A stretch of 64,000 nucleotides of DNA, taken from the IMG/VR virus record IMGVR_UViG_3300032236_001232, positions 64,001 to 128,000 of that record. One strand, 5' to 3'. The translations under genes were made by a program, and so were the position numbers. This document shows, piece after piece, positions 7,947 through 57,995 of the stretch (positions are counted from its first letter, which is position 1; every line of letters begins with the position of its first letter). The notes under the pieces were generated by a model. It was not told the DNA's origin. It saw only the letters and a program-made list of their open reading frames with translations, and made no database searches. The stretch comes from a virus.

Positions 7947-9152
7947 TTATTTAATTTTCTCCATTAATTTATCAATTTGGTCTTGTTGAGATTTGATAGC
8001 TTCTAATAAAATACCGATTAGAGGCAAATAACTAATTGATTTTAACCCGGTTTGATTGGTTCCTACTAATTCTGGCAACGTTTCTTCTAACTCCTGCGCT
8101 ATTAATCCATAGGATAATTTTCCAGATTGTTTCCAATTAAATTGCACTCCTCTGAGATTACGTAAAATATCGTGAGGGTTACTTATGGTAGCCACATTGT
8201 CTTTCATACTTAGGTCAGATGTGGTGTTAATATCTGTACAAGATAGCACCCCTGTTCCTGGATCAAAGGTTAAACTGGCATTAAACGCAGTATTTCCAGC
8301 ACTACTTTGATAGGGAATCTGATTAGTGCTACCACCAATAATATTATTGGAATTAACAGCACTATTAACATATATGCTAGATGTGTTAGTAAATGCAGGA
8401 GGGTTTCCTGCTCCTCCACTGACCATTAGCCAACCAGCACTTCCTTGAGCTAAGAAAGCAGTATTATCAGCAGAACTTTGATATAATAATGATCCATTGC
8501 CAACACCATTGCCTAGGATATTTTCAGCATAACCAACCTGTTGTGTGCTTGTATTGCCCGGGTTGAGAATATTAGCCACGGCAGCATTACCTACATAAAT
8601 GCTGCCTGTACTGGTATATGTAGGAGCACTGGTTCCAGCACTGACTAAAATCTGTCCTGTTGTGCCCGGTCCAGCAAATGCTGTTGTATCGGGCGCACTC
8701 ATGTAGACTAATTGACCGGCAGTTCCGCCAGATATACCTGCTCCGCCGCCACCTCCACCTCCACTGCTGCCAGCAGGGCCAGTTATATCTAACCAAACAT
8801 TATACCCACTTCCGTTATCTGTATACCTGTAGGTAATATCTGCACTACTATTATACCAGATATCTCCTACTGTAGGATTACTCGGTGGAGTAGTGCCAGT
8901 GGTGCTGCGAATACCGCCACCGACTACTGTTCCGCTGATATAGACCGAACCGCCTACACCTATACCGCCGGCGACAAGTAATGCTCCGGTAGTAGTGCCA
9001 GTGCTAGCTGTAGCATTGGTAATACTGAGATAGGTAGTAGAGGTAACTTGACCTGCTACTCTAGTCCACGACGATGTGGCTGTAGAGTAGCTATAGGTGA
9101 TACCATTAACTACGCTATTTTGTCCATTAGTTGGTAATACAGGGAAACTCAT
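7947..9152 (-). CDS. Short fibre protein with C-terminal S74 chaperone
   Basis: TSDLSMKDNV...GLIAQELE...YLPLIGILLEAIK; G/S/T-rich body. Confidence 0.85.
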   Translation of the reverse strand: MSFPVLPTNGQNSVVNGITYSYSTATSSWTRVAGQVTSTTYLSITNATASTGTTTGALLVAGGIGVGGSVYISGTVVGGGIRSTTGTTPPSNPTVGDIWYNSSADITYRYTDNGSGYNVWLDITGPAGSSGGGGGGGAGISGGTAGQLVYMSAPDTTAFAGPGTTGQILVSAGTSAPTYTSTGSIYVGNAAVANILNPGNTSTQQVGYAENILGNGVGNGSLLYQSSADNTAFLAQGSAGWLMVSGGAGNPPAFTNTSSIYVNSAVNSNNIIGGSTNQIPYQSSAGNTAFNASLTFDPGTGVLSCTDINTTSDLSMKDNVATISNPHDILRNLRGVQFNWKQSGKLSYGLIAQELEETLPELVGTNQTGLKSISYLPLIGILLEAIKSQQDQIDKLMEKIK

Positions 9153-9212
9153 ATTTGTGTCCCCTGTATTTAATCTAACGTCTCAGCACTGTTTCCATTA
9201 TTGAACATTGGA

Positions 9213-12200
9213 TTATAAGGCCGCTACTCTGCTCTGGAAGTCTAGGAAGCTACTAGATGCTGCTACAACTGCTTTGAAAGCCGCCAATGTCATATAAGCT
9301 GCCGAACCATTTGCAATAGCAGGACCATTTATATCAACCCAATAACTTGTTGTGCCATCGTTAGTGTATCGATACATTGTGTCATTGCTGGTATTGTACC
9401 AAATGTCTCCAACTGTAGCATTAGCCGGCACAGTCGATGTGCTTGAACTACGCACACCGCCACCGACAATGTGTCCAGCAACATTAAGTTCGCCGCCCAT
9501 TCCAACATCTGTGCTGAAATAGCTAGCACCTGTTACACCAAGACCGCCGCCAGTGATATTAACACTTTGCGATGCTACTGTGCTGCTGCTAGCTGTTCCA
9601 CCACTAAATGTGCTGGTGCTTTGCCATACAGGAGCATTACCTGTGCCATATACTAGATGCTGTTGAGCTGTACCACCTGCCAAGAACGCTGTGGTGCTAG
9701 CACCAGTTTGATATGGTAAACTTCCAGCACTGCCTCCAATAATATTATTGGATTTTACAGAACTATCAACATACATGCTACTGGTACTAACAAAAGCAGT
9801 AGCACCTGCGGCAGTTTGATAAGCAAACTGACCAGTTGTTCCACCAAACAAGTTCTGCGCACTGACAGCACCGTTAACATACATACTGCCGGTACTAACA
9901 AAAGCAGTAGTATTAGCAGCACTTTGATATGCAAACTGTCCAGTTGTTCCACCTAGTAAGTTTTGAGAGTTAACAGCATTACCAACATACATACTCGCAG
10001 TGCTAGCAAAAGCAGTAGTGCCCGGAGCAGTTTGATAAGCAAACTGGTTGGCCGTTCCGCCTGCTAGGTTAGTAGCTGTAGTAGCTAATGCGGCTGTTCC
10101 TGCTAGCGCACCAACGAATGATGTAGCAGTTACAACACCACCGACAAACAAGTTGCCACCAAATCCAGCACCGCCAACAACTACCAATGCACCTGTGTTA
10201 GTAGAAGTAACACCGGTTGTAGCACTAACTTTAATTCCGCCGGCATTTGATCCTGCGCTAACCCAGTATGCGCTACCGTCATATAGCCAAGAAGCATATG
10301 GTGTGCTTGTTGTTCCAATCTGTAAACCAGAACCAGCTGCTAGAGCTGCACTGCCGCTGCCTGTGCTTAGTGTTAATGTCTTATCGCCTGTAGCAATGCT
10401 ATTGCTATTAACAGTAAACGAAGTTCCGTCAACATACAAGTCGCCTGCTAGATAAGCACTACCACCAACAAACAAGTTACCACCGATACCAGCACCGCCA
10501 ACTACTTGGAATGCACCAGTTGTAGTAGACGAAGCATTTGTGTTACCAGTTACACTAACGTTGCCTGTAGCAAGTGTTGTGCCATTATAAGTTAATCCAC
10601 TACCGAATGTTGTAGCGCCTGCAGCACTTTGATATGGAATTTGGTTAGTAGCACCGCCAATAATGTTATTGGCATTAACAGCACTATTAACATAGATACT
10701 ACCAGTGGTAGTAAATGCTGGAGCAGATCCTGCACCCTGACTAACCAACAACCAACCAGCAGTTCCCTGTGCTAAGAAAGCAGTGGTATCTGGGGCACTT
10801 TGATATACTAATGCACCATTTCCTGCCCCATTTCCTAGTAAATTCTTAGCAAAACCAACCTGTTGTGTGCTGGTGTTACCTGGGTTGAGAATATTAGCAA
10901 CAGCAGCATTACCAACATACATACTACCTGTGCTAGCAAAAGCAGTAGCACCTGCAGCAGTTTGATATGCAAACTGTCCAGTTGTTCCACCAAACAAGTT
11001 CTGAGCACTAACAGCACCATTAACATACATACTACCTGTGCTAACAAACGCAGTAGTATTTGCAGCGCTTTGATATGCAAATTGTCCAGTTGTTCCACCT
11101 AGCAGATTCTGAGAATTAACTGCGTTACCGACATACATACTTGCAGTGCTAGCAAAAGCAGTAGCACCTGCAGCAGTTTGATAAGCGAATTGGTTAGCAC
11201 TTCCGCCTGCTAAATTAACAGCAGTAGTCATCAATGTAGATGTTGTTAGCGTAACCGTAGCTACATTGGAAGAAACACTAGCACTAAGTCCTGTACTAAA
11301 GTTAATAGTGCCTGCATTACCCTGACCAACTCCAAGACTTTGAATAGCCAATGCACTAGCTGTACTAACAGCGTATGGTCCAACAAAGAAATTGGTAGCT
11401 GTTACAACCCCACCAACATACATTCCACCGCCTACGCCAACACCACCGGTTACAACTAAAGCACCTGTGGTGGTTGAATTTGTTGATGTATTTGAATATA
11501 CCGATAAATTACCGTTGATATCGATCTGCATCTTTGTACCAAACGGAGTATACCAACGGAAGTTGCCGTTATAGTTGTCTATCTGCCAAGTTGTACCACT
11601 GTTAGCAAATCCAATTCTTGGACTTGCCGGAGTACTGCCTGCTACCCCTAGGTATAAAGCAACAGTAGTAGTCGAAGCTACTTCATCGTAGGCACCGGTA
11701 AATTTACCGTATCCACTGGAAATAACATTACCCCCTACACCTATACCGCCTGCAACTTGTAACGCTCCGGTTACTGTTGATGTAGCATTAGTTGTACCAG
11801 GAACTACAATATTAGTAGCAGTAAATGTTGTGCCGTTAAATGTTAATCCACTACCAAATGTAGTAGCACCTGCAGCACTCTGATAAGGAATTTGATCCTT
11901 AGCACCACCAATAATATTATTAGAGTTAACAGCACTATTAACATAAATGCTACCAGTACTGGTATATACCGGAATAGCAGCACCACCACTTACAAGAATC
12001 TGGCCTGCTGTACCTGGACCTACATAGTCGGTAGTACTAGGAGCACTTTGATACAATAGTTGACCAGCAGTACCGCCTCGTATTTCTTCTGCATACACAG
12101 CACTGTTGACATACATACTGCCAGTGCTGGTAAATGCAGGAGCACCATTAGTAGTCGCTTGTAGGAATTGTCCTGTTGTACCACTGTTAACAAACGCAGT

Positions 12201-14756
12201 TGTATTGGCCGCACTTTGATATGCAATTTGTCCCTGCGAACCAGCTAACACATTAGCGGCAAATCCAACTTGTTGTGTGCTAGTGTTACCTGCATTTAGA
12301 ATGTTAGCTACGGCGGCATTACCTACGTAGATACTTCCTGTACTGGTATATGTAGGAGCACTGGTTCCGGCACTGACTAAAATCTGACCTGTTGTTCCTG
12401 GTCCAACAAATCCTGTTACACCCGGACTGCTTTGATATGTTAACTGACCAGCTGTGCCACCACGCAATGTTTCGGCATTGACTGCGCTATTAACATAGAT
12501 ACTGCCTGTGCTAGTATATGTAGGAGCACTGGCACCGGCACTGACTAACAGTTGTCCTGCTGTTCCTGGCCCGACAAATCCAGTTGTGTCTGTTGCACTT
12601 TGATAAACTATTTGTCCTGCTGTTCCGCCGACAATATTATTGGCCTTTGAGGCTGTTCCTGAGAACGCACCAATAAATGTCGTAGCTGTTACGGTACCGC
12701 CTACAACCAATCCTCCGCCGATACCAACACCACCGGCTACTCTAAGAGCACCAGTTTGTGTATTAAGAACTCCTTCTGTGCTTTTTAGAAATACTCTACC
12801 AGTTTGGAATGTACCATAGGTTGCAGTGTTAAAGGTACCGCCTGTTCCTTCAGCACCAGTTTCGTACCATTCTAGATATTTGCTGTCATTAGCTAGCACT
12901 AGTGCAGCATTGTTGTCTGCCCCCGCATAATAATGGAAACGGAATCCAATATCCTTACCATCATCAACTGACCACTGTCCGTATACTCCGGTAGGAGGAA
13001 CGTGCATTTCGATAATGTTGTCTGTATAGTATGTGTTAGTACTAAGGTTATAAGTTGCTGTACCGTTAAATGTAACAGTTCCACGGAATGTTGTATCACC
13101 ACCGACTACTAAGGTTTTATCAACCCAAGCACCGCCTGCTACATATAATGAGTTGCTAGTATTTGTACCTGTATCAGCACTAGTGCTACCAGCAATTAAA
13201 GAACCTGCAGTTTTTAATCCAGCGCTGAAATAGCTATCACCTGTTACACCAAGTCCGCCACTGGTAATTGTAACGCTTTGATTTGCTACACCGGTTGCAC
13301 TGGCTGTACCACCACTAAATGTGCTGGTGCTTTGCCATACTAGTGTATTGCCCGTTCCATAAACTAAATGTTGCTGAGCCGCTCCGCCTGCTAAGAAAGT
13401 AGTAACTCCTGCTGCACTTTGATATGGTAAACTTCCAGCGCTGCCTCCACGCAATGTTTCAGCGTTAACAGCACTATTAACATAGATACTGCCAGTAGTA
13501 GTAAATGCCGGAGCAGAACCTGCACCTTGACTAACCAACAACCAACCAGCAGTTCCTTGTGCTAAGAAAGCAGTGGTGTTGGCAGCACTTTGATATACCA
13601 ATGCGCCGTTTCCTGCTCCATTGCCCAGTAAATTAGCAGCATAACCAACTTGTTGTGTACTGGTGTTACCTGGATTAAGGATGTTGGCAATAGCAGCATT
13701 GCCAACATACATACTGGCAGTGCTAGTAAAGCTAGGAGCGCCATTTGTAGTAGCTTGTAGGAATTGTCCAGTTGTTCCGCTGTTTGCAAAAGCTGTTGCT
13801 CCTGCAGCAGTTTGATAATGAATTTGTCCCTGTGAACCGCCTGCTAAATTAACAGCAGTTGTCATTAGGGTAGATGTTGTTAGTGTAACTGTGGCTACAT
13901 TAGCAGAAACACTGGCGCTAAGACCTGTGCTAAAGTTAATAGTACCAGCATTACCTTGGCCAACTCCAAGACTTTGAATAGCTAATGCACTAGCGGTGCT
14001 AACAGCATATGGTCCAACGAATAAATTAGTAGCAGTGATCACTCCGCCGACATACATTCCACCGCCTACGCCAACACCACCAGCTACCTGTAATGCGCCA
14101 GTATTTGTGCTAGTAACACCAATTGTAGAACTAATATTGGTAGTAGTAAATGTACCAGTATTGGCTGTGATTCTGCCAACTCCGAGAATATCACCACCGC
14201 CCATATCAATATCGCCGCCCGAAGAACCAGCAATAGTTAATGTTCCGCCAATGTATAGGTCTTTACCAACGGCTAATCCGCCAGCTACTTGCAATGCTCC
14301 GGTAACTGTCGATGTAGCATTAGTTACACCAGGAACAATAATATTAGTAGCAGTAAATGTAGTACCGTCAAATGTTAATCCACTGTTAAACGTAGTGATA
14401 CCTACTGCGCTTTGATAAGGAATCTGGTTCTTTAAACCACCTGCTATATTGGTAGCAGTATTGGCAGTAGCAGCCGATACGTTGCCACCAAGTGTACCAT
14501 TAAATGTACCATATATTGCTGTTGCTGTTAAAGCACCACCAATATACATTCCGCCGCCGACTCCAACTCCGCCTATGACTTGTAAGGCTCCTGTTGTGGT
14601 ATTAGCAACTCCTGTATTGTTGGTAATGCTGAGATAAGTTGTAGATGTAACTTGTCCAGCAACTCTGGTCCATGCGGTAGTTGAAGTGCTGTAGGAGTAG
14701 GTTATTCCATTAACTACTGCGGTTTGTCCATTTGCGGGCGACGTTGGAAATGACAT
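9213..14756 (-). CDS. Long repetitive fibre/appendage protein (1847 aa)
   Basis: G/A/S/T-rich; repeated TGAL(Q/V)VxGGxG and GQxxYQ(S/T)A modules; N-terminus nearly identical to that of 7947..9152. Confidence 0.8.
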   Translation of the reverse strand: MSFPTSPANGQTAVVNGITYSYSTSTTAWTRVAGQVTSTTYLSITNNTGVANTTTGALQVIGGVGVGGGMYIGGALTATAIYGTFNGTLGGNVSAATANTATNIAGGLKNQIPYQSAVGITTFNSGLTFDGTTFTATNIIVPGVTNATSTVTGALQVAGGLAVGKDLYIGGTLTIAGSSGGDIDMGGGDILGVGRITANTGTFTTTNISSTIGVTSTNTGALQVAGGVGVGGGMYVGGVITATNLFVGPYAVSTASALAIQSLGVGQGNAGTINFSTGLSASVSANVATVTLTTSTLMTTAVNLAGGSQGQIHYQTAAGATAFANSGTTGQFLQATTNGAPSFTSTASMYVGNAAIANILNPGNTSTQQVGYAANLLGNGAGNGALVYQSAANTTAFLAQGTAGWLLVSQGAGSAPAFTTTGSIYVNSAVNAETLRGGSAGSLPYQSAAGVTTFLAGGAAQQHLVYGTGNTLVWQSTSTFSGGTASATGVANQSVTITSGGLGVTGDSYFSAGLKTAGSLIAGSTSADTGTNTSNSLYVAGGAWVDKTLVVGGDTTFRGTVTFNGTATYNLSTNTYYTDNIIEMHVPPTGVYGQWSVDDGKDIGFRFHYYAGADNNAALVLANDSKYLEWYETGAEGTGGTFNTATYGTFQTGRVFLKSTEGVLNTQTGALRVAGGVGIGGGLVVGGTVTATTFIGAFSGTASKANNIVGGTAGQIVYQSATDTTGFVGPGTAGQLLVSAGASAPTYTSTGSIYVNSAVNAETLRGGTAGQLTYQSSPGVTGFVGPGTTGQILVSAGTSAPTYTSTGSIYVGNAAVANILNAGNTSTQQVGFAANVLAGSQGQIAYQSAANTTAFVNSGTTGQFLQATTNGAPAFTSTGSMYVNSAVYAEEIRGGTAGQLLYQSAPSTTDYVGPGTAGQILVSGGAAIPVYTSTGSIYVNSAVNSNNIIGGAKDQIPYQSAAGATTFGSGLTFNGTTFTATNIVVPGTTNATSTVTGALQVAGGIGVGGNVISSGYGKFTGAYDEVASTTTVALYLGVAGSTPASPRIGFANSGTTWQIDNYNGNFRWYTPFGTKMQIDINGNLSVYSNTSTNSTTTGALVVTGGVGVGGGMYVGGVVTATNFFVGPYAVSTASALAIQSLGVGQGNAGTINFSTGLSASVSSNVATVTLTTSTLMTTAVNLAGGSANQFAYQTAAGATAFASTASMYVGNAVNSQNLLGGTTGQFAYQSAANTTAFVSTGSMYVNGAVSAQNLFGGTTGQFAYQTAAGATAFASTGSMYVGNAAVANILNPGNTSTQQVGFAKNLLGNGAGNGALVYQSAPDTTAFLAQGTAGWLLVSQGAGSAPAFTTTGSIYVNSAVNANNIIGGATNQIPYQSAAGATTFGSGLTYNGTTLATGNVSVTGNTNASSTTTGAFQVVGGAGIGGNLFVGGSAYLAGDLYVDGTSFTVNSNSIATGDKTLTLSTGSGSAALAAGSGLQIGTTSTPYASWLYDGSAYWVSAGSNAGGIKVSATTGVTSTNTGALVVVGGAGFGGNLFVGGVVTATSFVGALAGTAALATTATNLAGGTANQFAYQTAPGTTAFASTASMYVGNAVNSQNLLGGTTGQFAYQSAANTTAFVSTGSMYVNGAVSAQNLFGGTTGQFAYQTAAGATAFVSTSSMYVDSSVKSNNIIGGSAGSLPYQTGASTTAFLAGGTAQQHLVYGTGNAPVWQSTSTFSGGTASSSTVASQSVNITGGGLGVTGASYFSTDVGMGGELNVAGHIVGGGVRSSSTSTVPANATVGDIWYNTSNDTMYRYTNDGTTSYWVDINGPAIANGSAAYMTLAAFKAVVAASSSFLDFQSRVAAL

Positions 14757-14797
14757 AATATTTGTTCCTTAGTGTTGGTTTTGTATAGCGTTAGCTA

Positions 14798-14805
14798 TAT
14801 TTATA
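14798..14805 (-). promoter_or_regulatory. T4-type late promoter
   Basis: Exact TATAAATA upstream of the ATG at 14756. Confidence 0.75.
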
Positions 14806-14821
14806 ATTTTGTTTAGGTATT

Positions 14822-17800
14822 TCATTCCGATTGATACCCTTTCTTTAACATTTCGATTTCTTGTTTAAGTTCTTTAATAGCCTCTATAAGCAGTGGCACT
14901 ATTTTTTCATACTGAATAGTTTGATAGTTTTCTCCAGATTTACTTCCACCTGCTCCGTCATCGTCGAACGGTGCTGGACGAACTGCTTCGGGCAATACTG
15001 CTTTAACCTCATCTGCAAATAGTCCTACTAATTTTTTATTTTTATCATATCCAAATGATTCTGCTAAGTCGTTTGGCGTATATGTAATACCATTCAATGA
15101 AAGAACTTTAACCACAGCATTATCGATTATTTGAACATTTTCTTTTAGTCTACGGTCTGAATAGTATGCTGTGACTTCATTAGTAGCACGAATTTCACCA
15201 CCTGTGCCGCTCGGAACCGTTCCTACTCCAAGGCTGAGAATTTGTGCTCCGCTATCACTAGTAGTAGTTCTTGCAATTCCATTAGTGCGAACTTCAAAAG
15301 TTCTTCCAGTGCCACCAGGGTTGTCAATATATCCACCCAGACCCGAAGCATTACTCCATATTTGAACAGCACTTGCTCCTGCTTGTATTAATTTTAGAAA
15401 GGCTCCGGACCCGCCCGAAGAATTAACTGTAACACCTCCACTTCCGTTCGGGGAGTCATTAACAAATAATGTGTTTGCAGTTGTACTATAGGAAAGATTG
15501 CCACTTAATGCTGTTGCATTTTGTCCTGTAATAGTAACACCGACTGGATAAAAAGTATAAGCAGAGGTATTGGTAGCATTAATAACATTGCTTGGTCCAG
15601 AAGCACCGCTAGGTCCTTGCGGTCCTTGAGCTCCAGTATTACCAGTTGGTCCTTGCGGACCTTGTGCTCCAGTATTACCTTGGACTCCTTGTGGTCCTTG
15701 TGGTCCTTGAGCGCCAGTATTGCCTTGCGGTCCTTGTGGTCCTTGTGCGCCAGTATTACCAGTTGGTCCTTGTGGACCTTGAGCACCAGTATTGCCTTGC
15801 GGTCCTTGTGGTCCTTGTGCGCCAGTATTACCAGTTGGTCCTTGTGGTCCTTGTGCGCCAGTATTACCAGTTGGTCCTTGTGGACCAGTTACTCCCTGTG
15901 GTCCCTGTGGTCCCTGGGCACCAGTATTGCCTTGCGGTCCTTGCGGTCCTTGAGCACCAGTGTTACCAGTCGGTCCTTGTGGACCGGTGACTCCTTGTGG
16001 TCCTTGAGCGCCAGTATTGCCTGTTGGTCCCTGTGGTCCTTGAGCGCCAGTATTGCCTGTTGGTCCCTGTGGACCGGTGACTCCTTGTGGGCCTTGAGCA
16101 CCGGTGTTGCCAGTCGGTCCTTGTGGACCTTGTGCGCCAGTATTACCAGTCGGTCCTTGCGGTCCTTGAGCACCTGTGTTACCAGTTACTCCCTGTGGTC
16201 CTTGTGCGCCAGTATTGCCAGTTGGTCCCTGTGGTCCCTGTGCTCCGGTATTACCAGTAGGCCCTTGCGGCCCTGTAACTCCTTGTGGGCCTTGTGCGCC
16301 AGTATTACCTTGCGGTCCAGTTGGACCAGTCGGTCCTACTGCACTAACTAATTGTCCATTGGTATAGATATTACCTGCATATATAGATCCGCCAATACCG
16401 ACTCCGCCTGCAACAATCAATGCCCCAGTTGTAGTAGAACTTGCGGCTGTATTATTAGTTGTTTGTATAACATCGTCAGTTTTAACTAACGTAGTAGTAA
16501 CAGTTGTATATTCTATAGTCAGCTTCTGAGCAACAATTTCTCCGCCAACATATAAATTTCCACCAACGCCAACTCCGCCTATTACTTGTAAGGCTCCTGT
16601 AGAGGTACTACTTGACGAAGTATTATTGCTAACTGATATTGCAGCAAATGTTACTGAGCTGGTAGTATATAGATCTTGATTTGTTCTACTAGGTCCTTGT
16701 GGCCCTGCGACTCCTTGCGGTCCTTGTGGTCCTGCGACTCCTTGCGGTCCTTGAGGTCCTTGTGCTCCGGTGTTACCTGTAACACCTTGCGGTCCTTGAG
16801 CACCAGTGTTACCTGTAACACCTTGCGGTCCTTGTGCGCCAGTATTACCAGTTGGTCCTTGTGGACCTTGAGCACCGGTATTGCCTTGAGGACCTTGTGG
16901 TCCAGTAACTCCTTGAGGTCCTTGTGCGCCAGTATTACCAGTCGGTCCTTGTGGTCCTTGTGCTCCAGTGTTACCCGTAACTCCTTGAGGTCCTTGTGCG
17001 CCAGTATTACCAGTTGGTCCTTGTGGTCCTTGGGCACCTGTATTGCCTTGTGGTCCCTGTGGACCGGTAACTCCTTGCGGCCCTTGAGCACCAGTATCTC
17101 CGGTCGGTCCTTGTGGACCTTGAGCACCGGTATTACCAGTTACACCTTGCGGTCCTTGTGGTCCCTGTGCTCCAGTATTACCAGTCGGCCCTTGTGGCCC
17201 AGTAACTCCTTGAGGTCCTTGTGCGCCAGTATTGCCTTGCGGTCCTTGTGGGCCTTGTGCTCCAGTATTACCAGTTACACCTTGCGGTCCCTGAGCACCA
17301 GTATTACCAGTAACTCCTTGTGGTCCTTGTGGTCCTTGAGCACCAGTATTACCAGTCGGTCCTTGTGGACCTGTAACTCCTTGTGGTCCTTGAGCACCGG
17401 TATCGCCTGTAACTCCTTGTGGGCCTTGTGCGCCAGTATTACCAGTTGGTCCTTGTGGGCCTTGTGCTCCAGTATTACCTGTCGGTCCTTGTGGTCCTGT
17501 AACTCCTTGTGGTCCTTGAGCACCGGTATCGCCTGTTGGTCCTTGTGGGCCAGCCGACCCTGCTGCTCCAATTAATTGTCCATTAGTGTAGATATTGCCA
17601 GCATATAAAGATCCGCCGATTCCTACACCCCCAATAACTTGTAGGGCTCCAGTTATTGTTGAACTAGCTTCAGCATTCCCTGTTACTAATAAATTCTCAG
17701 ATGAAACTTGATGATTCGTTGAATTGTATGTTAATACGGTATCCGCATCTAAAGGACTATAAGTTCCATCCTTAGTTTCGGTTAATGCTACATAATATGT

Positions 17801-19039
17801 ATTGCCTGGTTGAACGTTATTAACTAGAATATTGTCAGAATTGCTAGCACCACCTGCTGTTATTCCTGCTAGCATATCTGCTGTAAAGTTAACTACAGCA
17901 GGCCCGGTCATATCTATCCAATAGATTTCGCCGCTGCCATCATCAGTATATCTATATACAGCATCGTTTGTAGTGTTGTACCAAACATCGCCTACTGTGG
18001 GATTAATCGGTGCATTAGCAGCAGTTGTAGTCCTTACACCGCCACCTATAATTCTACCGCCTACATTTAAATTTCCGCTAATACCTACACCGCCTTCAAC
18101 TAGAACGGCTCCAGTATTTGTTCCTGTAGATTCTATGCCGCCGGTAACTTTAAGTCCCGGACCAGGTCCTGTATTGGCTAATATTGTAGATACCCCAACA
18201 GTTCCTGTGCTAGGACCACCCGGTGTAAGACTAAGTTGGAAGCGTGTAGGACTTAATACAGCAGGAACGTAATATGTTGTTCCAGAAACTAATCCAAGTC
18301 CCGATGTTTGAGGAACTACAACCTCGCCGCCGCTAAAAGCGTGAACGCTATCTGTTAAAAAGCTAACGCCATTAAAACTTAATATAGTTACAGTGGCACT
18401 GGATCCGTTAATGCTGACACTACCACCTACACTAACGTTGTTAGTTATTCTTGCACTACCTGTTAGTATACCACCGCTAATGGATAGTTTAGCAACAGAA
18501 AGTGTTTGACTGCCGGCGTCGTATGTTAATGACGAATCAGCATCCAAAGGACTATAATTTCCATCCTTGAGCTCACTTAATGTCACATAGTAACTAGTAG
18601 TAGAAAAAGTATCTACATTGTTGATTTGAACATTGTCGGCATTAATACTACCGCCGACTGGTCCGGAAATGTTATTCCCGCCTATGGTACCAAATATTGT
18701 ACCACCTACATATACATCGCCGCCAATACCTACTCCGCCTGCTACTGTCAATGCACCAGTATCGGTACTGGTACTGCTAGAAGTATTGAGTATTATAATC
18801 GAATAGGTAGTAGTATTACCCGAGTGTGTAACAGTTTGAAGGGTGGAAGTTGTTAGAACAGCACCGCCTCTGGTATATACTGTCCCACCTACCCAAAGAT
18901 CTTTAACAACAGATGCTCCACCAGCAACGTGAAGCGCACCAGACGAGGTGTCGATAGAATTAGTTGTTGATTCAACTGTGGCAGTTGTTGAGACCACCAG
19001 ACCATTTTTGACTACAAAGTCAATATTATTCAGAGCCAT
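14822..19039 (-). CDS. Collagen-like fibre protein with C-terminal S74 chaperone
   Basis: Two long Gly-X-Y tracts; C-terminal [11 protein letters not shown]...[15 protein letters not shown]. Confidence 0.9.
15590..16340 (-). repeat. Collagen Gly-X-Y tract 2 (~80 triplets)
   Basis: [15 protein letters not shown] triplets; 9/36-nt periodicity. Confidence 0.95.
16690..17560 (-). repeat. Collagen Gly-X-Y tract 1 (~95 triplets)
   Basis: Same triplet vocabulary. Confidence 0.95.
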
Positions 19040-19081
19040 TAGCTTCCCTCTCCACTATAACGGCTTAGGTTATATAAAGAG

Positions 19082-19089
19082 TATTTATA
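19082..19089 (-). promoter_or_regulatory. T4-type late promoter
   Basis: Exact TATAAATA just past a terminator and upstream of the ATG at 19039. Confidence 0.8.
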
Positions 19090-19116
19090 CGTTTGGGATA
19101 AAGTATAGTATAAAGC

Positions 19117-19142
19117 AAAACAGGACCTTGCGGTCCTGTTTT
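19117..19142 (-). terminator. Rho-independent terminator
   Basis: Minus strand AAAACAGGACC-GCAA-GGTCCTG-TTTT after the stop at 19160. Confidence 0.85.
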
Positions 19143-19159
19143 TGCCTAGCTATGCTATA

Positions 19160-22100
19160 TTAACAATAGTTTTCAATACTGGTTATGATACTTTGACGAA
19201 CCACTTGAATATTCATACTACTTGTAGAATAGTTAGGAGTAAATGTTATTTCAACATTTCCACTAACGATACTACCGCTAAATGTCCCAAGCTCGCCTAG
19301 AGTAGTTATAATACCGTACTCACTCATATAAACATTGGTACCATCTTGGATGACCATGATTTCTTGAGTGTGTATCTTACCACCGTTGTCAGTAAGTTGA
19401 ACCATGTATTTGGCACTGGTATAAGTACCGCTATCCCAGCTGTCAATAACCTCTGTCCAGCTTCCGTTAAGTCCGGTATAGCTTCCACCACTCTGCATGC
19501 TGTTGACAATGAACACACCGTCGATTGGCTTGCCGTCTGGGCTTTCACCACCAACATCACCGCCGTTGTTCATACCAGCGTAGAGCACACCGCCTACTGC
19601 AACATCGCCTAGTGCTTTAATAGCACCACGGACTCCTAACGATTGACTTGTTTGATCAAGATCCTTACCGTACACATCGACACTGTTATCGGTACTAGTA
19701 ATAGTTAACGATGTAGCAGTAAAGGTACCGGTAATATCGACATTATTAAGTGTCGCAGTACCAGTCGATATGATGTCCATAAACTGACTGCTTGTGCTGG
19801 ACAGTTTCTTTCCACCTAAGTAGATATCATTGGCAATGTAAACACTGCCGTTAAATGTAGCAGTTGTTCCAACATACAAGTCTTTCTGTATGCTAGCACC
19901 ACCTTGTGTGTTAAAAGAAACATAGTCGGCAGTATTAGCTAGGCTAGGATTATCATTGTTAATCCAAACCATTCTACCAAAGTAAGCACCACCGTTTGGT
20001 ATGTTCAACGCTGCGTCAGGATAACCATACCCACCTTCTGTACCATCGACTAGTAAAGTAGCAGTTTCAACAAATGTCGCTGTTACATTGTTAGCAAAGA
20101 TTGTACCAGTTGAATGAACATCAGCAAATGTACCTGTGCTACCAGTAATCTGGTCAACACCATCTAGGCTATTACCCTGGACATACAGCGTGCCTTGAAC
20201 ATACAAGTCTGCGTTAATATAAGCATTTTGATCAACATATAAACCACCAGCAATACTTGCTCCACCAACTACTTGTAGGGCACCTGTTGCTGTTGTATTG
20301 GTTGAACTAGCTGCTGTTCCTTTAATAATGACACTGTTATTAACTGTTAGTGTGTTATTAAATGTTGTAGTACGAGTTAGCTCTTTAGTAGCCGAGTTAT
20401 AAACTACTAGAGTTGTAGCTGTACTATCATCACGCAGGGAATCTACATAGAACTTACCAGTGTCGTCGTAAACTTTAGTACCGTTTGGCAATGCTAGTTT
20501 ACCATCGATGCCATAAACCCACTCATTGCCAGCTTCACTGGTTTTGATTAGAACCTGTGACTGAGCATCAAGCACCAAGTCTCTAGCACCGCCGCCAAGA
20601 GCAACACTGTTCTCTTCACGTAGATTTGCAGTGCTATCAAACTCAACCCGACCAGTAGTTGATGTGAATACCAAGTTGCCACCGACACCCACCGACAATC
20701 CAACATTAACACCACCGTTTGGTACATCTAGTGCTGCGGTTACTGGACCATCATTATAGTTAGCATTGGAATCAATGTAGATAGCTTTCTTAGAATAGAT
20801 ACCACCGTTTGGAATCATCAACGCTGCATCGTTTGCATAACTGTAACCACCTTCTGTACCATCAATAGTGATAGTATTAGCACCAGTGATATTACCACCA
20901 GTCATAGTGATGTCGCCGCCGGTTCCGCCAGTGACTTCAAGCGCACCGCTAACTGATAGTGTAGCGCTACCACTGTTGTAGGTTAAACCGCTGTCGTCGA
21001 CTAGGTTAAGATCGTTATCAGTGAATACAACACGACCACTGGTTAAGTTTTGTGGACGAACATATGGTGCCTGGAAGTATTTGCTGCCACCATCATTGAA
21101 CACCAAGTTACCACTAGTGTTTAGTGTTAAGGTGATACCATCTGCTTCCATGTGTGCGCCGGCGGTGTTTACCCAAATAAAAGCATCGTTGTTATAGTTT
21201 AGTTGAGCATAGTAATCACTATATAATTCAATGCTTTGACCACTATCGGCAGCCAATACATTATCAGCCTCACCATCTTTACCAGTGCTATCGTTGGTAT
21301 AAAGGTTAACGGTATTAACTTTGAAAGAATAGTTATCACCATCATACTGTAGATAGCTGGTTGCTGTGGTTATATCATTGTCTTTCTGATACAAGACACT
21401 CCACTGTGGACCAACAACGTTGGTTGCTGTAGTAGCACGACCGACTGAAGTTCCCGAAGCACTTTGCCAAGTAGCTGTAGTACCACCGTTATCCCAAGTT
21501 AAAACTTGATGATCAGCTGTTCCAGCAGGAATAAATGTTGTCTCACCGCTGGCTGTTTGAATTGGAATCTGTCCATTCAAACCACGATTTAAGTTATCTG
21601 CTTTTGTAGCAGTACCATATAACTTGTTATGTGTACCTGTTTCGTCTTGTAGATAGATATCACCAGCAATGCCAACACCACCAGCAATAATCAGTGCGCC
21701 AGTTCCGGTATTAGATGATGGAGTAGTATTAACCAGTTCAATAGCACCAGTCTTAAATGTGCCATATGTTGTGCCAGTAAATACACCACCTGCTGTTTCA
21801 GTTCCGTCACTATACCACTCTAAATAACTGCTGTCGTTAGCAAACCCTAAGAATGCGTTTTTGTCAGCACCTTTGTAGTAGTGGAAAATAAAACCAATGT
21901 CTTTACCATCATCTGTACCCCAGGCGTGATTGTTTAAATCACCACCGTTTGGTGTGTGCATGTTGATGATATTGTCTGTATAGACTGTGTTGGTAGAATA
22001 TACATAAGTTGCTGTACCATTAAATGTTACACTGCCACGGAATGTTGTATCCCCAGCAACAACTAGTGTCTTGTCAACCCAAGCACCGCCGTCAACGTAG

Positions 22101-23467
22101 AATGCGTTAGAAGTTTTAGTTCCTGTATTTGCAGCAGCACTCTTAACAATCAAGTTGTCGCCGATGTAAACACCGCCTGCTACTTTTAGTGCAGCATCGC
22201 CGCCGCCTGAATCTGTAGCAGTTTGTGTGCTGTCGATGATTGCTCGCTTGTTAACATAAAGTCCACCGCTGGATAGATTTAATGCTGGGTAACTGCCATT
22301 GGCATCATTTGTGCTGGCTATTACTACGTTAAGACCAAAATTAGCGCCGCCATTTGGAACATTTAGCGCACCGATACCTGTATCACCGCCTTCGGTACCA
22401 TCGATAAGCACATTTTTGGCAACGTAAATACCACCTTGGCCAACATGTAATGATGCTGAACTACTTGTTGCATCATTGGTTGTAGAACCACCAATGTAAA
22501 CATCTTGATCAACATAAGCACCTCCAGAGGCTACTCTTAATGCTCCGCCACCGGCTGTTGAACCGTTAGTTGTGCTGTCAATCTGTAGATCTTTATTGAT
22601 GTAAGCACCACCTTGATCTAACTTTAGAGCAGGTTCGGCATCTCCAGCAGCACCACTAGAATGAATAAACACATTCTCATGGATGTATGCACCACCGTTT
22701 GTAAGTACTAATGCACCAGCAGGAGTACCACTGGCATGAGTAGTACCGTCAATTTTTAAATCGTTGTAAATGTAAGCACCACCGGCACTGACATTTAGGG
22801 CTGGGTGAGCATCGGCTGCATCGCCGGTGTCGCTTAATTTAACACCACCGTTACTAACACCTTTGATTTCTAATGCAGCAGTGGAAGTAGCATTAGCAAG
22901 ATGAGTTAATTTTAAGACACCGCTGTTATCAAAAACCAATTCATTTAAATTTGAACCGTTGTTGTTTGTCTGGAAAATAACACCATCAGTTCCGTTTACA
23001 GTAACCTCAGCATAGGCGTTACCGGGACCGTATAACCCAGCATTATAAATCAAACTTGAAGCAGCGTCGGAGCTGACTTTTGTACTACGACCGGAAACAG
23101 CCTTAACTGTTAAATCATATCCGGTGTTTAATCCAGTAATACCTTCGTTACCGTCAATAACGATATTGCTGACTGTGCTAACACCGTCAACTACTAATGT
23201 ACCAGCAGCATATGTATTGCCTGTTGCGGCTTGAATAGTGAAATTACCATTGTTAACATCGACATTGCCGGCAACAGTTAATGTGCTTTTTAGAACGCTA
23301 GGACCAAAAACAGTAGCACTGCTTCCGATCAATATGTCCTTAGCGAACGCGGCGCCACCATTCACTTGTAGCGTGCCGGTGTTGCCAGTTGATGTAGATA
23401 CCGGGTTAGTCGTTCCTTGAACGATTAAACCAGATTTTACAATAAAATCTTTAGAAAGTAGTGCCAT
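19160..23467 (-). CDS. Fibre/virion structural protein (1435 aa)
   Basis: Repeated ALxVxxGGxY beta modules; N-terminal DFIVKSGL; C-terminal SAKY...EYG domain. Confidence 0.75.
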   Translation of the reverse strand: MALLSKDFIVKSGLIVQGTTNPVSTSTGNTGTLQVNGGAAFAKDILIGSSATVFGPSVLKSTLTVAGNVDVNNGNFTIQAATGNTYAAGTLVVDGVSTVSNIVIDGNEGITGLNTGYDLTVKAVSGRSTKVSSDAASSLIYNAGLYGPGNAYAEVTVNGTDGVIFQTNNNGSNLNELVFDNSGVLKLTHLANATSTAALEIKGVSNGGVKLSDTGDAADAHPALNVSAGGAYIYNDLKIDGTTHASGTPAGALVLTNGGAYIHENVFIHSSGAAGDAEPALKLDQGGAYINKDLQIDSTTNGSTAGGGALRVASGGAYVDQDVYIGGSTTNDATSSSASLHVGQGGIYVAKNVLIDGTEGGDTGIGALNVPNGGANFGLNVVIASTNDANGSYPALNLSSGGLYVNKRAIIDSTQTATDSGGGDAALKVAGGVYIGDNLIVKSAAANTGTKTSNAFYVDGGAWVDKTLVVAGDTTFRGSVTFNGTATYVYSTNTVYTDNIINMHTPNGGDLNNHAWGTDDGKDIGFIFHYYKGADKNAFLGFANDSSYLEWYSDGTETAGGVFTGTTYGTFKTGAIELVNTTPSSNTGTGALIIAGGVGIAGDIYLQDETGTHNKLYGTATKADNLNRGLNGQIPIQTASGETTFIPAGTADHQVLTWDNGGTTATWQSASGTSVGRATTATNVVGPQWSVLYQKDNDITTATSYLQYDGDNYSFKVNTVNLYTNDSTGKDGEADNVLAADSGQSIELYSDYYAQLNYNNDAFIWVNTAGAHMEADGITLTLNTSGNLVFNDGGSKYFQAPYVRPQNLTSGRVVFTDNDLNLVDDSGLTYNSGSATLSVSGALEVTGGTGGDITMTGGNITGANTITIDGTEGGYSYANDAALMIPNGGIYSKKAIYIDSNANYNDGPVTAALDVPNGGVNVGLSVGVGGNLVFTSTTGRVEFDSTANLREENSVALGGGARDLVLDAQSQVLIKTSEAGNEWVYGIDGKLALPNGTKVYDDTGKFYVDSLRDDSTATTLVVYNSATKELTRTTTFNNTLTVNNSVIIKGTAASSTNTTATGALQVVGGASIAGGLYVDQNAYINADLYVQGTLYVQGNSLDGVDQITGSTGTFADVHSTGTIFANNVTATFVETATLLVDGTEGGYGYPDAALNIPNGGAYFGRMVWINNDNPSLANTADYVSFNTQGGASIQKDLYVGTTATFNGSVYIANDIYLGGKKLSSTSSQFMDIISTGTATLNNVDITGTFTATSLTITSTDNSVDVYGKDLDQTSQSLGVRGAIKALGDVAVGGVLYAGMNNGGDVGGESPDGKPIDGVFIVNSMQSGGSYTGLNGSWTEVIDSWDSGTYTSAKYMVQLTDNGGKIHTQEIMVIQDGTNVYMSEYGIITTLGELGTFSGSIVSGNVEITFTPNYSTSSMNIQVVRQSIITSIENYC

Positions 23468-23492
23468 TTTTTAAATTTCCTTTAGTTATAGT

Positions 23493-24272
23493 CTATGAGG
23501 CTAATCCTGTCCTCAACACTTTAATATTTTTAGCAGTTGGATAGTAAGGTGTAAAATACAATCTCACTATTTCGTCCATTTGAACGTCTGCTTCAAACTC
23601 CCCCATCTCCCCATTTGTAGTTAATACAGCATATTCTGTTGCATATACCGTACCTACATTATCCACCAACAACAGTATTTCGATGGTCTGAAAGTCTGCT
23701 GTGGGTCCATCCCCTTCGTCTATTTGTATTAGATACTTGGCTGACCTAAATTGGTCAACTGAATAAGAATCTATTACTACAGTTCCAGTCGTATTTACCA
23801 ACATTACCGTAGAATCAAACACTGCATCCATGATTTTGACCGATTCTGAAGTCAATCTTCCTTCCACCCAAATATCCCCACCTACACCTATCCCGCCTTC
23901 TACTAACAACGCTCCTGTAGTTGTGCTAGTAGATTCGGTAGTGTTTAAAATTATTATTTGGTTGGTGGTGGTGTTGCCAACATCAGTTACTCTCTGTAGG
24001 TTAGGTGCCGGGGCATATTGACCAATAGTAGCTGTAGTGACAATTTCAGCACCATTAATAGTGCTGGTTGTCCCGGCGTTAATTGCTCCGCCTACTCCGA
24101 CACCACCGGCGACTACCAATGCTCCTGTGGTTGTGCTAGTAGACTGTGCGCTGCCACCTACAGATAATGGACTAGTCTTGATCCAAGCATATCCGTTCCA
24201 TACCCATGTGTTAGACCCAATAGTCCAAGTATCTCCAACATTAGGATTAGGAGGAAAATTTAATTCTGACAT
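23493..24272 (-). CDS. Small fibre adaptor-like structural protein
   Basis: N-terminal NFPPNPNVGDTW...W; two STSTTTGAL repeats; C-terminal SAKY...EYA domain. Confidence 0.7.
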   Translation of the reverse strand: MSELNFPPNPNVGDTWTIGSNTWVWNGYAWIKTSPLSVGGSAQSTSTTTGALVVAGGVGVGGAINAGTTSTINGAEIVTTATIGQYAPAPNLQRVTDVGNTTTNQIIILNTTESTSTTTGALLVEGGIGVGGDIWVEGRLTSESVKIMDAVFDSTVMLVNTTGTVVIDSYSVDQFRSAKYLIQIDEGDGPTADFQTIEILLLVDNVGTVYATEYAVLTTNGEMGEFEADVQMDEIVRLYFTPYYPTAKNIKVLRTGLAS

Positions 24273-24300
24273 ATTTCTACTCTTTGTTCGTTAATCATTT

Positions 24301-26406
24301 TTATATTGCCGATGTAAATTGTATCCAGAACGTGCTAGTTCCGTCTTTAATATATTGTAGTTCAACCCCAAAATTAGGATCAATCCAAAAATCCCCAACT
24401 CTTGGACCCGGCGGCGGTGATGTTGATATCGTTACCCTCGGGGTATATAGTAAATTATTTTCATATGCATTACCGTCCATACTATAAATGCTACCAGGGA
24501 CATTTAATGTGCTAGTTCCAGTAACAAAATAAGTGCTTGTGGATTTGTCAGTTGTAATATATGTTAATGCACTATCGCTGTCTATTGGGCTATAATCCCC
24601 AATTAGTTCACTTAATCCTAGATAGTATGTTTGTAAAGGGACAGTATCATTAATAAACACATTGTCACTATTGGTAGCAGTAGATGCTAGACCGGCAGAT
24701 AATGAAGAAAAATCTTGCCAGGTTGCAGTGCTACCATTGCTGGTTAATACTTTATTGTTACCACCGATAGGAATAAATCCAGTAACCCCGTCGGCAGTTT
24801 GATACGGTATACTACCTAGCGCTCCGCCTGCTAAATTAGTTGCAGTAGTAATGGTACCTGTAATCAAATATCTTACATTCATTCCATTGTAGAATGTGGC
24901 CATTCCGGTGACCATTAAATCACCTTTAATTCCAGTCCCGCCAAACACAGTTAGAGCACCATATGGACTTAGACTGTTTATTTTACCACCACTAACGTAA
25001 GTTCCAAACCCAGTTCCATTAACGGGTTGGGTTAATGCTTCATCATAATAGATACTGAATGTAGTAGTTCCTAAGTAACTAGCCCAATAAATTTGATCAT
25101 TTAATTCGGTAGTTCCTACTATTTCTGTTAATACAACTTCTGTTCCTGTGCTAATTTCGTAAGTGCTGTCAATATGAACTACAACTGGATTGGTTTTATC
25201 AATTCCTAATATGTCAGTTAGATATATTGTGGCGCTTACCTCAGTCCCTAACCCAATACCGGTATTACTGTTGAGTTGTAAATAACCGTTTCCATCGTAA
25301 TAGAACACGCTACCAATATTAACTTGGTTATCTAGCCCATTGACTAGGTTATCACCACCTATACTGATATTGGCGGTGCCTCGAGTTATGTTATTTCCAA
25401 CTTCGTGACCTAGGAATATATTGTAGCTACCTGTGGTTAAATTAACAGCAGTACGGTCTCCAACAAGTAAGTTTTGTTTACCATTAATAAGATTACGACC
25501 TGCGTCTGTTCCAATAGCAATATTGTCATCCCACACAGTATCAAGATATACTGTTCCGCTGTTTACGTAAGCAGTATATCCGCTACCGTTAACAGGAATG
25601 CTTAAATTAATATCCGAATACAGGGCAATTGATGATGGGCTTAATACATTAATGTAGTAATTGTTATTATTAAGCTGAGTTGTACCAATAATACCATCTA
25701 TGGTAACTAATGTTCCTGTGCTTAACCCATGTTGTGGAGCAGTAACTACTACAGCAGGTCCACCTAATGCAACATTAGTAACTGTTGCTGCTGTTAGTAA
25801 ATGATAAATTCCTAGATTTTTAAGAGCACTATCACCAATAGCAATGGAATTATTAATCTGTGTGCCCGAACTAAGAGCATAACGACCTACTGCAATACTT
25901 TTATAACTTGTTGAGAGTCCTGTTAATGCGTCGTAACCGATGACAATACTTTCTTGACCATTAAAATCATTATCTACTGTAGGGGTAGCAACACCCTGTA
26001 TAACAATATTATTAAGTCCTTGCCACCCTTGACCAATAGTTAATCCATTAACATGTATATCTTTTTCTGTCCATAGTGCATCACTAATCCCAACACCGCC
26101 TTTGATAATTAGCGCACCTGTGTTTGTGCTTGTGCTAGCTGTTCCACCGGCTACAATAACAACGCCGGTTCCGGTCCCTATCAATTTTATATCTTGATTA
26201 GCGATATTGCTGAATACATTACCTGAACTAAATTCTAAATTACCCAAGCTGGATCTATAACTGGTACGCAATAAGTTGTCGGTAACTAGCGTATAGCCAG
26301 TACTGGTAGTAGGAGTTGGTGGTAATTGGGGTTGCGCCCCTTTAAGATCAATAAATTGACCGCTTCCACCGCGTCTTAGAGTTGATCCGCTTAATAATGA
26401 TGGCAT
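24301..26406 (-). CDS. Virion structural/fibre protein (701 aa)
   Basis: NxAIG repeats; two copies of a HGLSTG..V.I..I.GTT.LN...Y beta module; C-terminal PRVGDFW domain. Confidence 0.7.
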   Translation of the reverse strand: MPSLLSGSTLRRGGSGQFIDLKGAQPQLPPTPTTSTGYTLVTDNLLRTSYRSSLGNLEFSSGNVFSNIANQDIKLIGTGTGVVIVAGGTASTSTNTGALIIKGGVGISDALWTEKDIHVNGLTIGQGWQGLNNIVIQGVATPTVDNDFNGQESIVIGYDALTGLSTSYKSIAVGRYALSSGTQINNSIAIGDSALKNLGIYHLLTAATVTNVALGGPAVVVTAPQHGLSTGTLVTIDGIIGTTQLNNNNYYINVLSPSSIALYSDINLSIPVNGSGYTAYVNSGTVYLDTVWDDNIAIGTDAGRNLINGKQNLLVGDRTAVNLTTGSYNIFLGHEVGNNITRGTANISIGGDNLVNGLDNQVNIGSVFYYDGNGYLQLNSNTGIGLGTEVSATIYLTDILGIDKTNPVVVHIDSTYEISTGTEVVLTEIVGTTELNDQIYWASYLGTTTFSIYYDEALTQPVNGTGFGTYVSGGKINSLSPYGALTVFGGTGIKGDLMVTGMATFYNGMNVRYLITGTITTATNLAGGALGSIPYQTADGVTGFIPIGGNNKVLTSNGSTATWQDFSSLSAGLASTATNSDNVFINDTVPLQTYYLGLSELIGDYSPIDSDSALTYITTDKSTSTYFVTGTSTLNVPGSIYSMDGNAYENNLLYTPRVTISTSPPPGPRVGDFWIDPNFGVELQYIKDGTSTFWIQFTSAI

Positions 26407-33804: not shown

Positions 33805-33851
33805 ATTTTTATTTATCATATTACTAAATTCAACATAATATTTTAATCAAT

Positions 33852-54094: not shown

Positions 54095-54102
54095 ATATCA
54101 TC

Positions 54103-54540
54103 ATGTCATACAAAACATTAGTAATTACTACTCAAGATTCTATATATCAGCAGGCTGCAAAACAGGATCATTTTTACAAAGGATTCAGCACAGTCGATCC
54201 TACCAATAAGGGTAATAATCTCTATGACATTGATTTAATTAAACAAGATATTATAAATCACTTCAACACCAAGCGTGGTGAAAGGGTAATGAATCCTGCG
54301 TTCGGTAGCATTATTTGGGACCTGATCATGGAACCGTTAACAGACGAAACGACAGATCTTCTCAAAAATGATATTAAAACTATCTGCACAGCAGATCCTA
54401 GGGCAATTCCTTTACAAATGGATTTAACAGAATATCAGGATGGGTATCTATTAGAATTAACATTACAGATAGTAGGAACCGATCAATCTGCCAGTATGAG
54501 GGTATCATTTAATAGAGAAACCGGGATAGCCGTCCAATAA
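54103..54540 (+). CDS. gp25: Baseplate wedge subunit (gp25-like)
   Basis: IKQDIINHFNTKRGERVMNPAFGS, DPR. Confidence 0.9.
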   Translation: MSYKTLVITTQDSIYQQAAKQDHFYKGFSTVDPTNKGNNLYDIDLIKQDIINHFNTKRGERVMNPAFGSIIWDLIMEPLTDETTDLLKNDIKTICTADPRAIPLQMDLTEYQDGYLLELTLQIVGTDQSASMRVSFNRETGIAVQ

Positions 54541-54588
54541 TATATTCAGTTTATTACATCAATAAATACGATATCTACTATTAAAACC

Positions 54589-57993: not shown

Positions 57994-57995
57994 TA

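Follow-up and report, generated by a model that had tools for sequence, protein, structure and literature searches.

Gene order probably spells out how fibre pieces join in an uncultured jumbo phage

Background

In phage T4 the genes 34-37 are colinear with the order of their products in the fibre, end-to-end joints between fibre segments are classical, and gp9 as a socket is textbook knowledge. Here we describe a set of fibre genes in a stretch of viral DNA of 64,000 nucleotides (bases 64001-128000 of the 163,947-bp IMG/VR record IMGVR_UViG_3300032236_001232), which is called the window throughout. Six of these genes lie in the window and a seventh lies beyond its left edge on the same contig; their products share four kinds of short module, two that begin proteins (plug A and plug B) one that lies at the C-terminus (socket A) and one that lies there or further inside the chain (socket B). 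The order of the genes probably spells out how the fibre pieces join. An earlier note on this DNA, made from the letters alone, had not recognised such a colinear grammar, but precedents exist in the colinearity of T4 genes 34-37 and in the socket role of gp9. Fibres decide which host a phage infects, and the fibre architecture of uncultured jumbo phages has been unknown so far.

The N-terminus of T4 gp9 binds the baseplate and its C-terminal beta-sandwich is a coaxial socket for the N-terminus of gp34 (PMC3004832), which makes it a direct precedent for socket A; the same C-terminal domain is also needed for trimerisation (PMC10253068). The chain proposed here would resemble the T4 long tail fibre (gp9; gp34-gp35-gp36-gp37) in that its segments are made separately (as trimers in T4) and joined end to end, with the genes in assembly order. 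A further likeness is the presence of T4-type late promoters ahead of fibre genes. However, the gp9-type socket would be used twice in our locus, on an adaptor and at the distal end of a 1435-aa fibre, and the gene of the presumed partner lies directly downstream, which is not so for T4 genes 9 and 34.

A second group of described systems is branched. In phages CBA120, G7C and RaK2/phiK64-1 several receptor-binding proteins are held in one branched organelle via conserved N-terminal modules, and some of these proteins carry internal docking domains yet continue to their own tip (PMC10253068), as two of the fibres described here would do. RaK2 gp529 also ends in a gp9-like domain. Branching in those complexes comes from XD domains (T4 gp10-like) that one or two hub proteins carry N-terminally, whereas the putative connectors of our locus are a C-terminal gp9-like domain and a hairpin of roughly 40 residues, arranged serially along the gene order; Pfam searches detected no XD or gp10 N-terminal family. 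In the anchor-branch model for Klebsiella phage receptor-binding proteins (PMC6872550), a conserved short N-terminal peptide of the second protein is proposed to dock on a domain of the first, which is a similar idea; that model involves two proteins and other domains, and not a chain of six or seven. Three features appear to be new. A gp9-type socket is used again at the distal end of a long fibre, with the gene of its presumed partner as the next one downstream; the B connector is small and has no described counterpart; and the regularity extends over the whole lineage and includes converter proteins.

Results and discussion

End modules of the fibre genes

Modules were located with profile hidden Markov models (HMMs) built on window sequences and with a regular-expression scan, and similarities were measured by local BLAST. 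The six co-oriented open reading frames (ORFs) are all present on the minus strand at exactly the coordinates that the earlier note had listed. Both scans also put every module where that note had placed it, except that the socket B of the fifth protein, reported as C-terminal, stands 36 residues before the C-terminus.

In transcription order, the first protein is P0001 (24301..26406, minus strand like all six), a fibre or spike of 701 aa with beta-helix repeats, E1_FCCH-like inserts and a conserved N-terminus (MPxLLSGSTLRRGGSG...). Its extreme C-terminus is socket B1 (residues 657-699, 24310..24438; PxxPRVGDFWID...QYIxDG...FWIQF, HMM E 4e-22), which is at the C-terminus in all relatives. The putative B-to-A adaptor P0002 (259 aa, 23493..24272) begins with plug B1 (residues 1-32, 24177..24272; MSxLNFPPNPxxGDTWTIGxNTWxWNGxAWIK, HMM E 3e-21) and carries socket A1, a beta-sandwich like the gp9 C-terminal domain (residues 147-257, 23502..23834). 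P0003, a fibre of 1435 aa (19160..23467), has plug A1 at its N-terminus (residues 1-28, 23384..23467; MALLSKDFIVKSGLIVQGT..., HMM E 1e-15) and socket A2 at its C-terminus (residues 1316-1427, 19187..19522; HMM E 2e-29). This socket is a second gp9/10-C-like domain and matches phrog_2885, a baseplate wedge subunit (E 1.9e-8).

The 1405-aa fibre P0004 (14822..19039) combines plug A2 (residues 1-28, 18956..19039; HMM E 2e-13), an internal socket B2 (residues 336-379, 17903..18034; RTTT...YRYTDDG...YWIDMTGP, HMM E 1.5e-19), two long collagen-like runs and an S74 intramolecular chaperone (residues 1294-1354, 14978..15160). P0005, of 1847 aa (9213..14756), has plug B2 at residues 1-36 (14649..14756) and socket B2 at residues 1769-1811 (9324..9452). 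P0006, of 401 aa (7947..9152), has plug B2 at residues 1-36 (9045..9152), an internal socket B2 at residues 82-125 (8778..8909) with a Gly-rich linker directly after it, and an S74 chaperone at residues 312-363 (8064..8219). The seventh fibre (1979 aa, contig 52751..58690) lies 5.3 kb past the left edge of the window and carries plug B at its N-terminus. Pfam finds collagen repeats in P0004 and confirms the S74 domains: with its cut-off at 22 bits, Peptidase_S74 (PF13884) scores 40.1 in P0004 and 43.7 in P0006, as well as 32.7 in the next fibre, P0007, and 38.6 in the 1979-aa protein.

The similarity between the two copies of each A module greatly exceeds chance (local BLAST E 1.6e-11 for socket A and 5e-5 for plug A), and so does that among the B modules, with E 3e-21 between the plugs B of P0005 and P0006 and 1e-14 to 1e-22 among sockets B. 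Module counts are balanced in the contig, with two sockets and two plugs of type A and four of each of type B when the 1979-aa fibre is included.

Order and number of modules in related loci

Homologues of P0002 were collected from public metagenomes (775 of similar length and 844 longer ones; none of those listed has an informative name), their contexts were fetched and all ORFs were scanned with the module HMMs. Adjacency was then counted in 57 non-identical related metagenomic loci, with 2000 shuffles of gene order as the null. Of 99 socket-A genes, 92 have a plug-A-headed gene immediately after them (shuffle mean 16.5), and of 67 socket-B genes, 56 have a plug-B-headed gene there (shuffle mean 8.8); none of the 2000 shuffles reaches the observed value for either type. 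Cross pairs, meaning socket A followed by plug B or socket B followed by plug A, number zero in the 57 loci, and most of the apparent exceptions to adjacency are diverged plugs just below the HMM threshold. The succession of socket genes and plug genes in relatives, for which the earlier note had suggested an HMM check, is borne out by these counts. The same holds for its reading of the 259-aa protein as a B-to-A adaptor, whose module layout is of this kind in every relative.

The number of modules also co-varies. Socket A2 on the fibre after the adaptor and a plug-A2 head on the next gene occur together in 43 loci and are both missing in 14, which span at least three architecture groups; the socket occurs by itself in one locus and the plug in none. 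In the discordant locus (L046) a plug-A2-headed gene is found two genes further on. Extra genes starting with plug B2 are found only downstream of an extra socket-B2 gene, in eight distinct contexts in which the extra socket lies at residue 59, 65, 66, 82, 336, 1106, 1618 or 1769.

In a set of 120 longer homologues all 69 occurrences of socket A are C-terminal, three apparently internal matches having proved so, and plugs are N-terminal; in the loci, too, socket A is C-terminal throughout. Rosetta-stone fusions, in which one chain would have a socket and immediately after it the plug, are absent from these 120 homologues. Very short proteins of the same kind also exist. One relative (L028) encodes a protein of 107 aa that holds little beyond plug A2 and socket B2, and a fibre with plug B2 at one end and socket A at the other follows one gene later. 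Another (L012) has an adaptor with 95% identity to P0002 and an orthologue of P0004 that has 386 aa and ends right after socket B2 (L012:15195-16352, plus strand). This orthologue is without the collagen runs and the S74 domain, which may reflect either a break in the assembly or a natural difference by truncation or insertion.

Subtypes of the junctions

A clean separation is possible between the plug A that heads the gene after the adaptor (MALTSITKDFxVKxG..GT) and the one that heads the next gene (DFxVKNGLVVxTTAT), and the two socket-A positions can be told apart equally well; in held-out classification as A1 or A2, 44 of 46 plugs and 47 of 49 sockets were assigned correctly. Plug B1 of the adaptor and socket B1 of P0001 are likewise distinct from the B2 modules downstream. 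Where the earlier note had seen two orthogonal codes, the sequences point instead to four conserved junction subtypes, sB1/pB1, sA1/pA1, sA2/pA2 and sB2/pB2 (s for socket, p for plug). Its suggestion that the A-A subunit could polymerise with itself becomes unlikely, because plug A1 and socket A2 of P0003 belong to different subtypes. For P0005, which has plug B2 and socket B2 on one protein, the modules would allow self-polymerisation.

A broader reading, which we put forward only tentatively and would not yet favour, is that of a combinatorial code with at least four cognate pairs in the window. Two would consist of diverged gp9-type sockets with N-terminal peptides and two would be subtypes of a previously undescribed Trp/Tyr hairpin pair of about 40 residues; at least two more pairs, ...NSLDTVFG tails before MAQLLSGTRIYG heads and DFG/DLG tails before Mtd_N-like heads, would exist in relatives. 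Such a code would set both the order of segments and their branching, and the tiny proteins made of a plug and a socket would act as code converters.

Socket A and the gp9 fold

The structure of P0002 was modelled with AlphaFold2 (AF2) on an alignment of 58 sequences. Residues 150-258 form an eight-stranded beta-sandwich in the model, with a predicted local distance difference test score (pLDDT) of about 90. The top PDB match of this model in Foldseek is T4 gp9 (1qex_A, E 1.2e-6), and VIA-align superposes model residues 146-259 on gp9 residues 169-284 with Z 13.8 and a root-mean-square deviation of 2.2 A over 109 residues. In the model socket A has the fold of the T4 gp9 C-terminal domain, and P0002 resembles gp9 in size and layout as well. 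By sequence alone its membership in PF23618, the T4 gp9/gp10 C-terminal domain (residues 167-288 in 1qex), is borderline: the C-terminus of P0002 scores 23.9 bits (E 5.5e-5), under the cut-off of 25, and that of P0003 14.9 bits (E 0.034), or 15.2 bits in a contig-wide search in which P0003 was the sole match and below threshold.

The resemblance to gp9 does not extend to the other end of P0002. Its N-terminus is modelled as a beta-meander of short strands and not as a coiled coil, and PF07880, which covers the N-terminal coiled coil and the gp7-binding middle domain of gp9, matches nothing in the contig at E <= 1. The search of the whole contig with PF23618 and PF07880 gave no further gp9/gp10-like gene.

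Concerning plug A, its sequence was compared with the N-termini of ten Straboviridae gp34 proteins (M(s/a)e..k.F(R/K)A..GLDA.GeKViNV). The two are in register over M...F.[AV]..GL, with weak hhalign P values of 0.02-0.04; plug A resembles the gp34 N-terminus faintly, and we take this as a lead only. In searches of T4 gp34-gp37 with the module HMMs no match was significant and the plug A HMM missed T4 gp34, and no T4 counterpart of the B junction was detected.

Plug B and socket B, possibly two like modules

Plugs B1 and B2 are homologous to each other (hhalign probability 98%). Both plug B and socket B are modelled as a beta-meander after a proline-rich lead-in, with three short strands in plug B1 (pLDDT 74-87) and three to four strands in the AF2 model of socket B1 (pLDDT 81-94), and they have the core PxxPxxG(D/Q)x(W/Y)...W in common. 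Because of this common core and the similar models, plug B and socket B may be two copies of one module and the junction a pairing of like modules. An extension of this idea is that the two are halves of a single tandem double-hairpin domain split between genes, the junction being made by fold complementation. This is a refinement of the proposed docking at the B junction, with which its probability overlaps, and we regard it as rather unlikely in this strict form. Three other proteins of the contig carry the motif twice in tandem within one chain, which speaks for it; yet the profile similarity of plug B to socket B (P 1.6e-4 for the core, 2.6e-3 over 31 columns) is weak for modules so short, and no natural fusion with pB directly behind sB was found among the 120 longer homologues.

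A complex prediction for the B1 junction, which combined the C-terminal 70 residues of P0001 and residues 1-60 of P0002 in three copies each, scored 0.89, and one control with an unrelated partner scored 0.88, so that the result counts neither for nor against docking. Foldseek found nothing for the socket-B1 model in the PDB at E <= 0.001, a result that does not imply a new fold since the module is too small. Two known domains were considered for the B module and not retained. DUF2793 (PF10983), whose cut-off is 27 bits, reached 14.2 bits over just 25 residues (E 0.04), and the WW domain, which the spacing W...Y..Y...W...P recalls, gave no Pfam match at E <= 1.

The three proteins with the tandem motif (L010:8012-11956, plus strand) are adjacent paralogues of 451, 327 and 415 aa that share an N-terminus of about 55 residues (MSYT.K..D...). 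Their motifs read GQLWYDT... and GD.W.D..., and PHROGs labels them just as virion structural protein. They are probably alternative fibres for one attachment site.

Proposed assembly and its alternatives

We think it fairly likely that the products of the six genes and the seventh are segments of a single fibre of the virion, long and branched, in which cognate end modules connect the segments head-to-tail, and that gene order mirrors the order of assembly. The segments would be made separately, presumably as trimers, before joining. P0001 would offer the small C-terminal beta-meander sB1, to which the adaptor P0002 would bind via its like-looking N-terminal meander pB1, presenting in turn its terminal gp9-type sandwich sA1. 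The N-terminal peptide pA1 of P0003 would attach coaxially to a trimeric sA1, as T4 gp34 does to gp9, and the diverged second socket sA2 at the end of P0003 would take the pA2 N-terminus of P0004. From there on, P0005, P0006 and the 1979-aa fibre would dock with their pB2 N-termini on the sB2 modules of P0004, P0005 and P0006. Where sB2 is internal, in P0004 and P0006, the host chain would run on to its own S74-matured tip and a branch would result.

If the end modules dock in this way, sequence alone would suffice to tell in which order the proteins of a fibre follow one another and where the fibre branches. Under a true junction code, fibre tips could also be swapped by module exchange. The gp9-type socket would be a reusable connector able to cap a long fibre, beyond its role at the baseplate, and the small B module would be a connector without a solved structure. 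Docking can be tested with short recombinant fragments, and no phage culture is needed.

This proposal starts from what is observed, namely where the modules lie, their homology, the gp9 fold, an adjacency that is conserved and module numbers that co-vary. From these we infer physical binding, the trimeric state, a coaxial and not a lateral geometry and the attachment site on the virion, and this step weighs against the proposal together with several other points. How a trimer would dock on an internal sB2 is not evident. The socket-B-like motif occurs twice in tandem in the three plus-strand paralogues described above (contig 136012..139956), which have no plug-B partner; the motif is not specific to junctions. 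Acinetobacter and Klebsiella tailspikes have a gp9-like fold at their free C-terminus (Z 9-11), and cyanophage S-SM2 gp107, the sole match of P0002 among cultured phages by tblastn, is capped by the socket-A fold without having a plug-A neighbour; in these proteins the fold need not be a socket. The gp9-like domain of RaK2 gp529 is read by its authors as a trimerisation aid (PMC10253068). The core order P0001-P0002-P0003-next gene is synteny by descent, which means that the 57 loci do not count as independent and that the independent signal rests on roughly 8-10 architectural variants. Finally, two relatives (L005 and L035) hold three plug-A genes for two sockets, and since the contig is about half of the genome, the balance of sockets and plugs may not hold genome-wide.

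Several of these points would fit an alternative that we judge improbable, in which the shared termini are generic structural modules that do not partner each other, socket A being a cap for folding or trimerisation as in many tailspikes and plugs A and B N-terminal anchors on a common baseplate or neck site, and adjacency is merely inherited order. The tailspikes that end in a gp9-like fold and S-SM2 gp107 agree with it, as does the trimerisation role of the gp9 C-terminal domain; phage fibres as a rule have a conserved N-terminal anchor and vary in their distal parts, and core synteny is common by descent. However, generic modules would not predict the strict co-variation of socket A2 and plug A2 (43/1/0/14), nor the appearance of an extra plug B2 only after an extra socket B2 in eight architectures, and they leave unexplained both the mini-proteins made of plug and socket, such as that of 107 aa, and the total lack of cross pairs.

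Very improbable, lastly, is that the conserved gene ends are recombination linkers for swapping fibre modules between genes and phages by homologous recombination: the fibre bodies are strongly mosaic (blocks of 60-80% identity are common to the 1847-, 401-, 1405- and 1979-aa proteins by local BLAST) and near-identical adaptors (in our contig, L012 and L013) go with very different bodies behind the same plug, but paralogous modules are 62-78% identical as protein and 60-69% as DNA, with about half of the identical residues differing in codon, and the constraint therefore acts on the protein. Docking sites are nonetheless likely places of module exchange, which agrees with the docking reading and is no alternative to it.

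Source phage and expression of the fibre genes

CheckV estimates the completeness of the record at 46%, and its gp23-type capsid protein is about 70% identical to capsid proteins of RaK2/GAP32-like jumbo myophages. On these grounds the source is an uncultured jumbo phage of the T4 superfamily with a genome of roughly 350 kb. Megablast of the fibre cluster against cultured phages gave no nucleotide match.

The genes of P0008, of a 126-aa protein and of P0001, P0002 and P0003 are spaced by just 12-28 nt and look like a tightly packed operon in which P0003 is last. The intergenic region that follows (19040..19159, minus strand) has a GC hairpin with a T-run terminator and then a T4-type late promoter, TATAAATA, at 19082..19089 ahead of P0004. 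A second TATAAATA promoter (14798..14805, minus strand) is found upstream of P0005 in the intergenic region 14757-14821, and TAAATA variants precede P0006 (9153-9212) and P0007 (7873-7946). The 1979-aa fibre, which has a TTG start, possesses its own AAGGA Shine-Dalgarno sequence and its own TATAAATA promoter. The terminator after P0003 and the late promoters before P0004-P0007 suggest that expression of the fibre chain is divided between one operon and several late units of a single gene each.

Neighbouring genes and further junction types

P0007 (2833-7872, minus strand) is the next fibre, cysteine-rich and capped by S74. It has none of the four end modules, and by this grammar it would be outside the chain for that reason. 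Genes for carbamoyl-, glycosyl- and sulfotransferases follow P0007 and stand between it and the 1979-aa fibre with plug B.

On the other side of the cluster, P0008 (1469 aa, 26814-31223, minus strand) has complete relatives of 1172-2545 aa, with one database gene call of up to 3732 aa, and a near-invariant C-terminus (...FFTSTDQNGDFRIG.GLVISQATGVLSGRTF.QSL.ANMTPFILAIE). Its weak Pfam matches are to Phycobilisome (E 4e-7). The order from P0008 to a conserved protein of 126-140 aa (here 26419-26799, minus strand) to P0001 is constant in relatives, and P0008 with this small protein may be the base of the appendage. The major capsid gene is separated from the next conserved structural gene by an HNH-type homing endonuclease gene (33133-33819, minus strand), which the relatives examined lack at the corresponding position.

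Other pairs of gene ends recur in the relatives. In L009, L040, L060, L061, L063, L064 and L067, fibre tails of the form ...GNR(V/I)G(F/W)...VYQYYN..TNSLDTVF(G/A) are followed by MA(Q/K)LLSGTRIYGT starts, and this start resembles the conserved N-terminus of P0001, MPSLLSGSTLRRGG. Mtd_N-like heads (M.TQVQ(W/F/L)(K/R)RGT...), of which the window has none, were seen in L003, L005, L006, L008, L014, L015, L017, L026, L034, L037, L041 and L046. PF18454 is precomputed for several of them, and they are reminiscent of the T4 gp37 N-terminus. They always come after proteins of 174-495 aa with ...ADFG...FDWG.. or ...DAFGV...DLG.. tails. Because 10 of the 12 proteins with DFG/DLG tails start with plug A2 and one with plug B2, they are putative converters to a further junction type.

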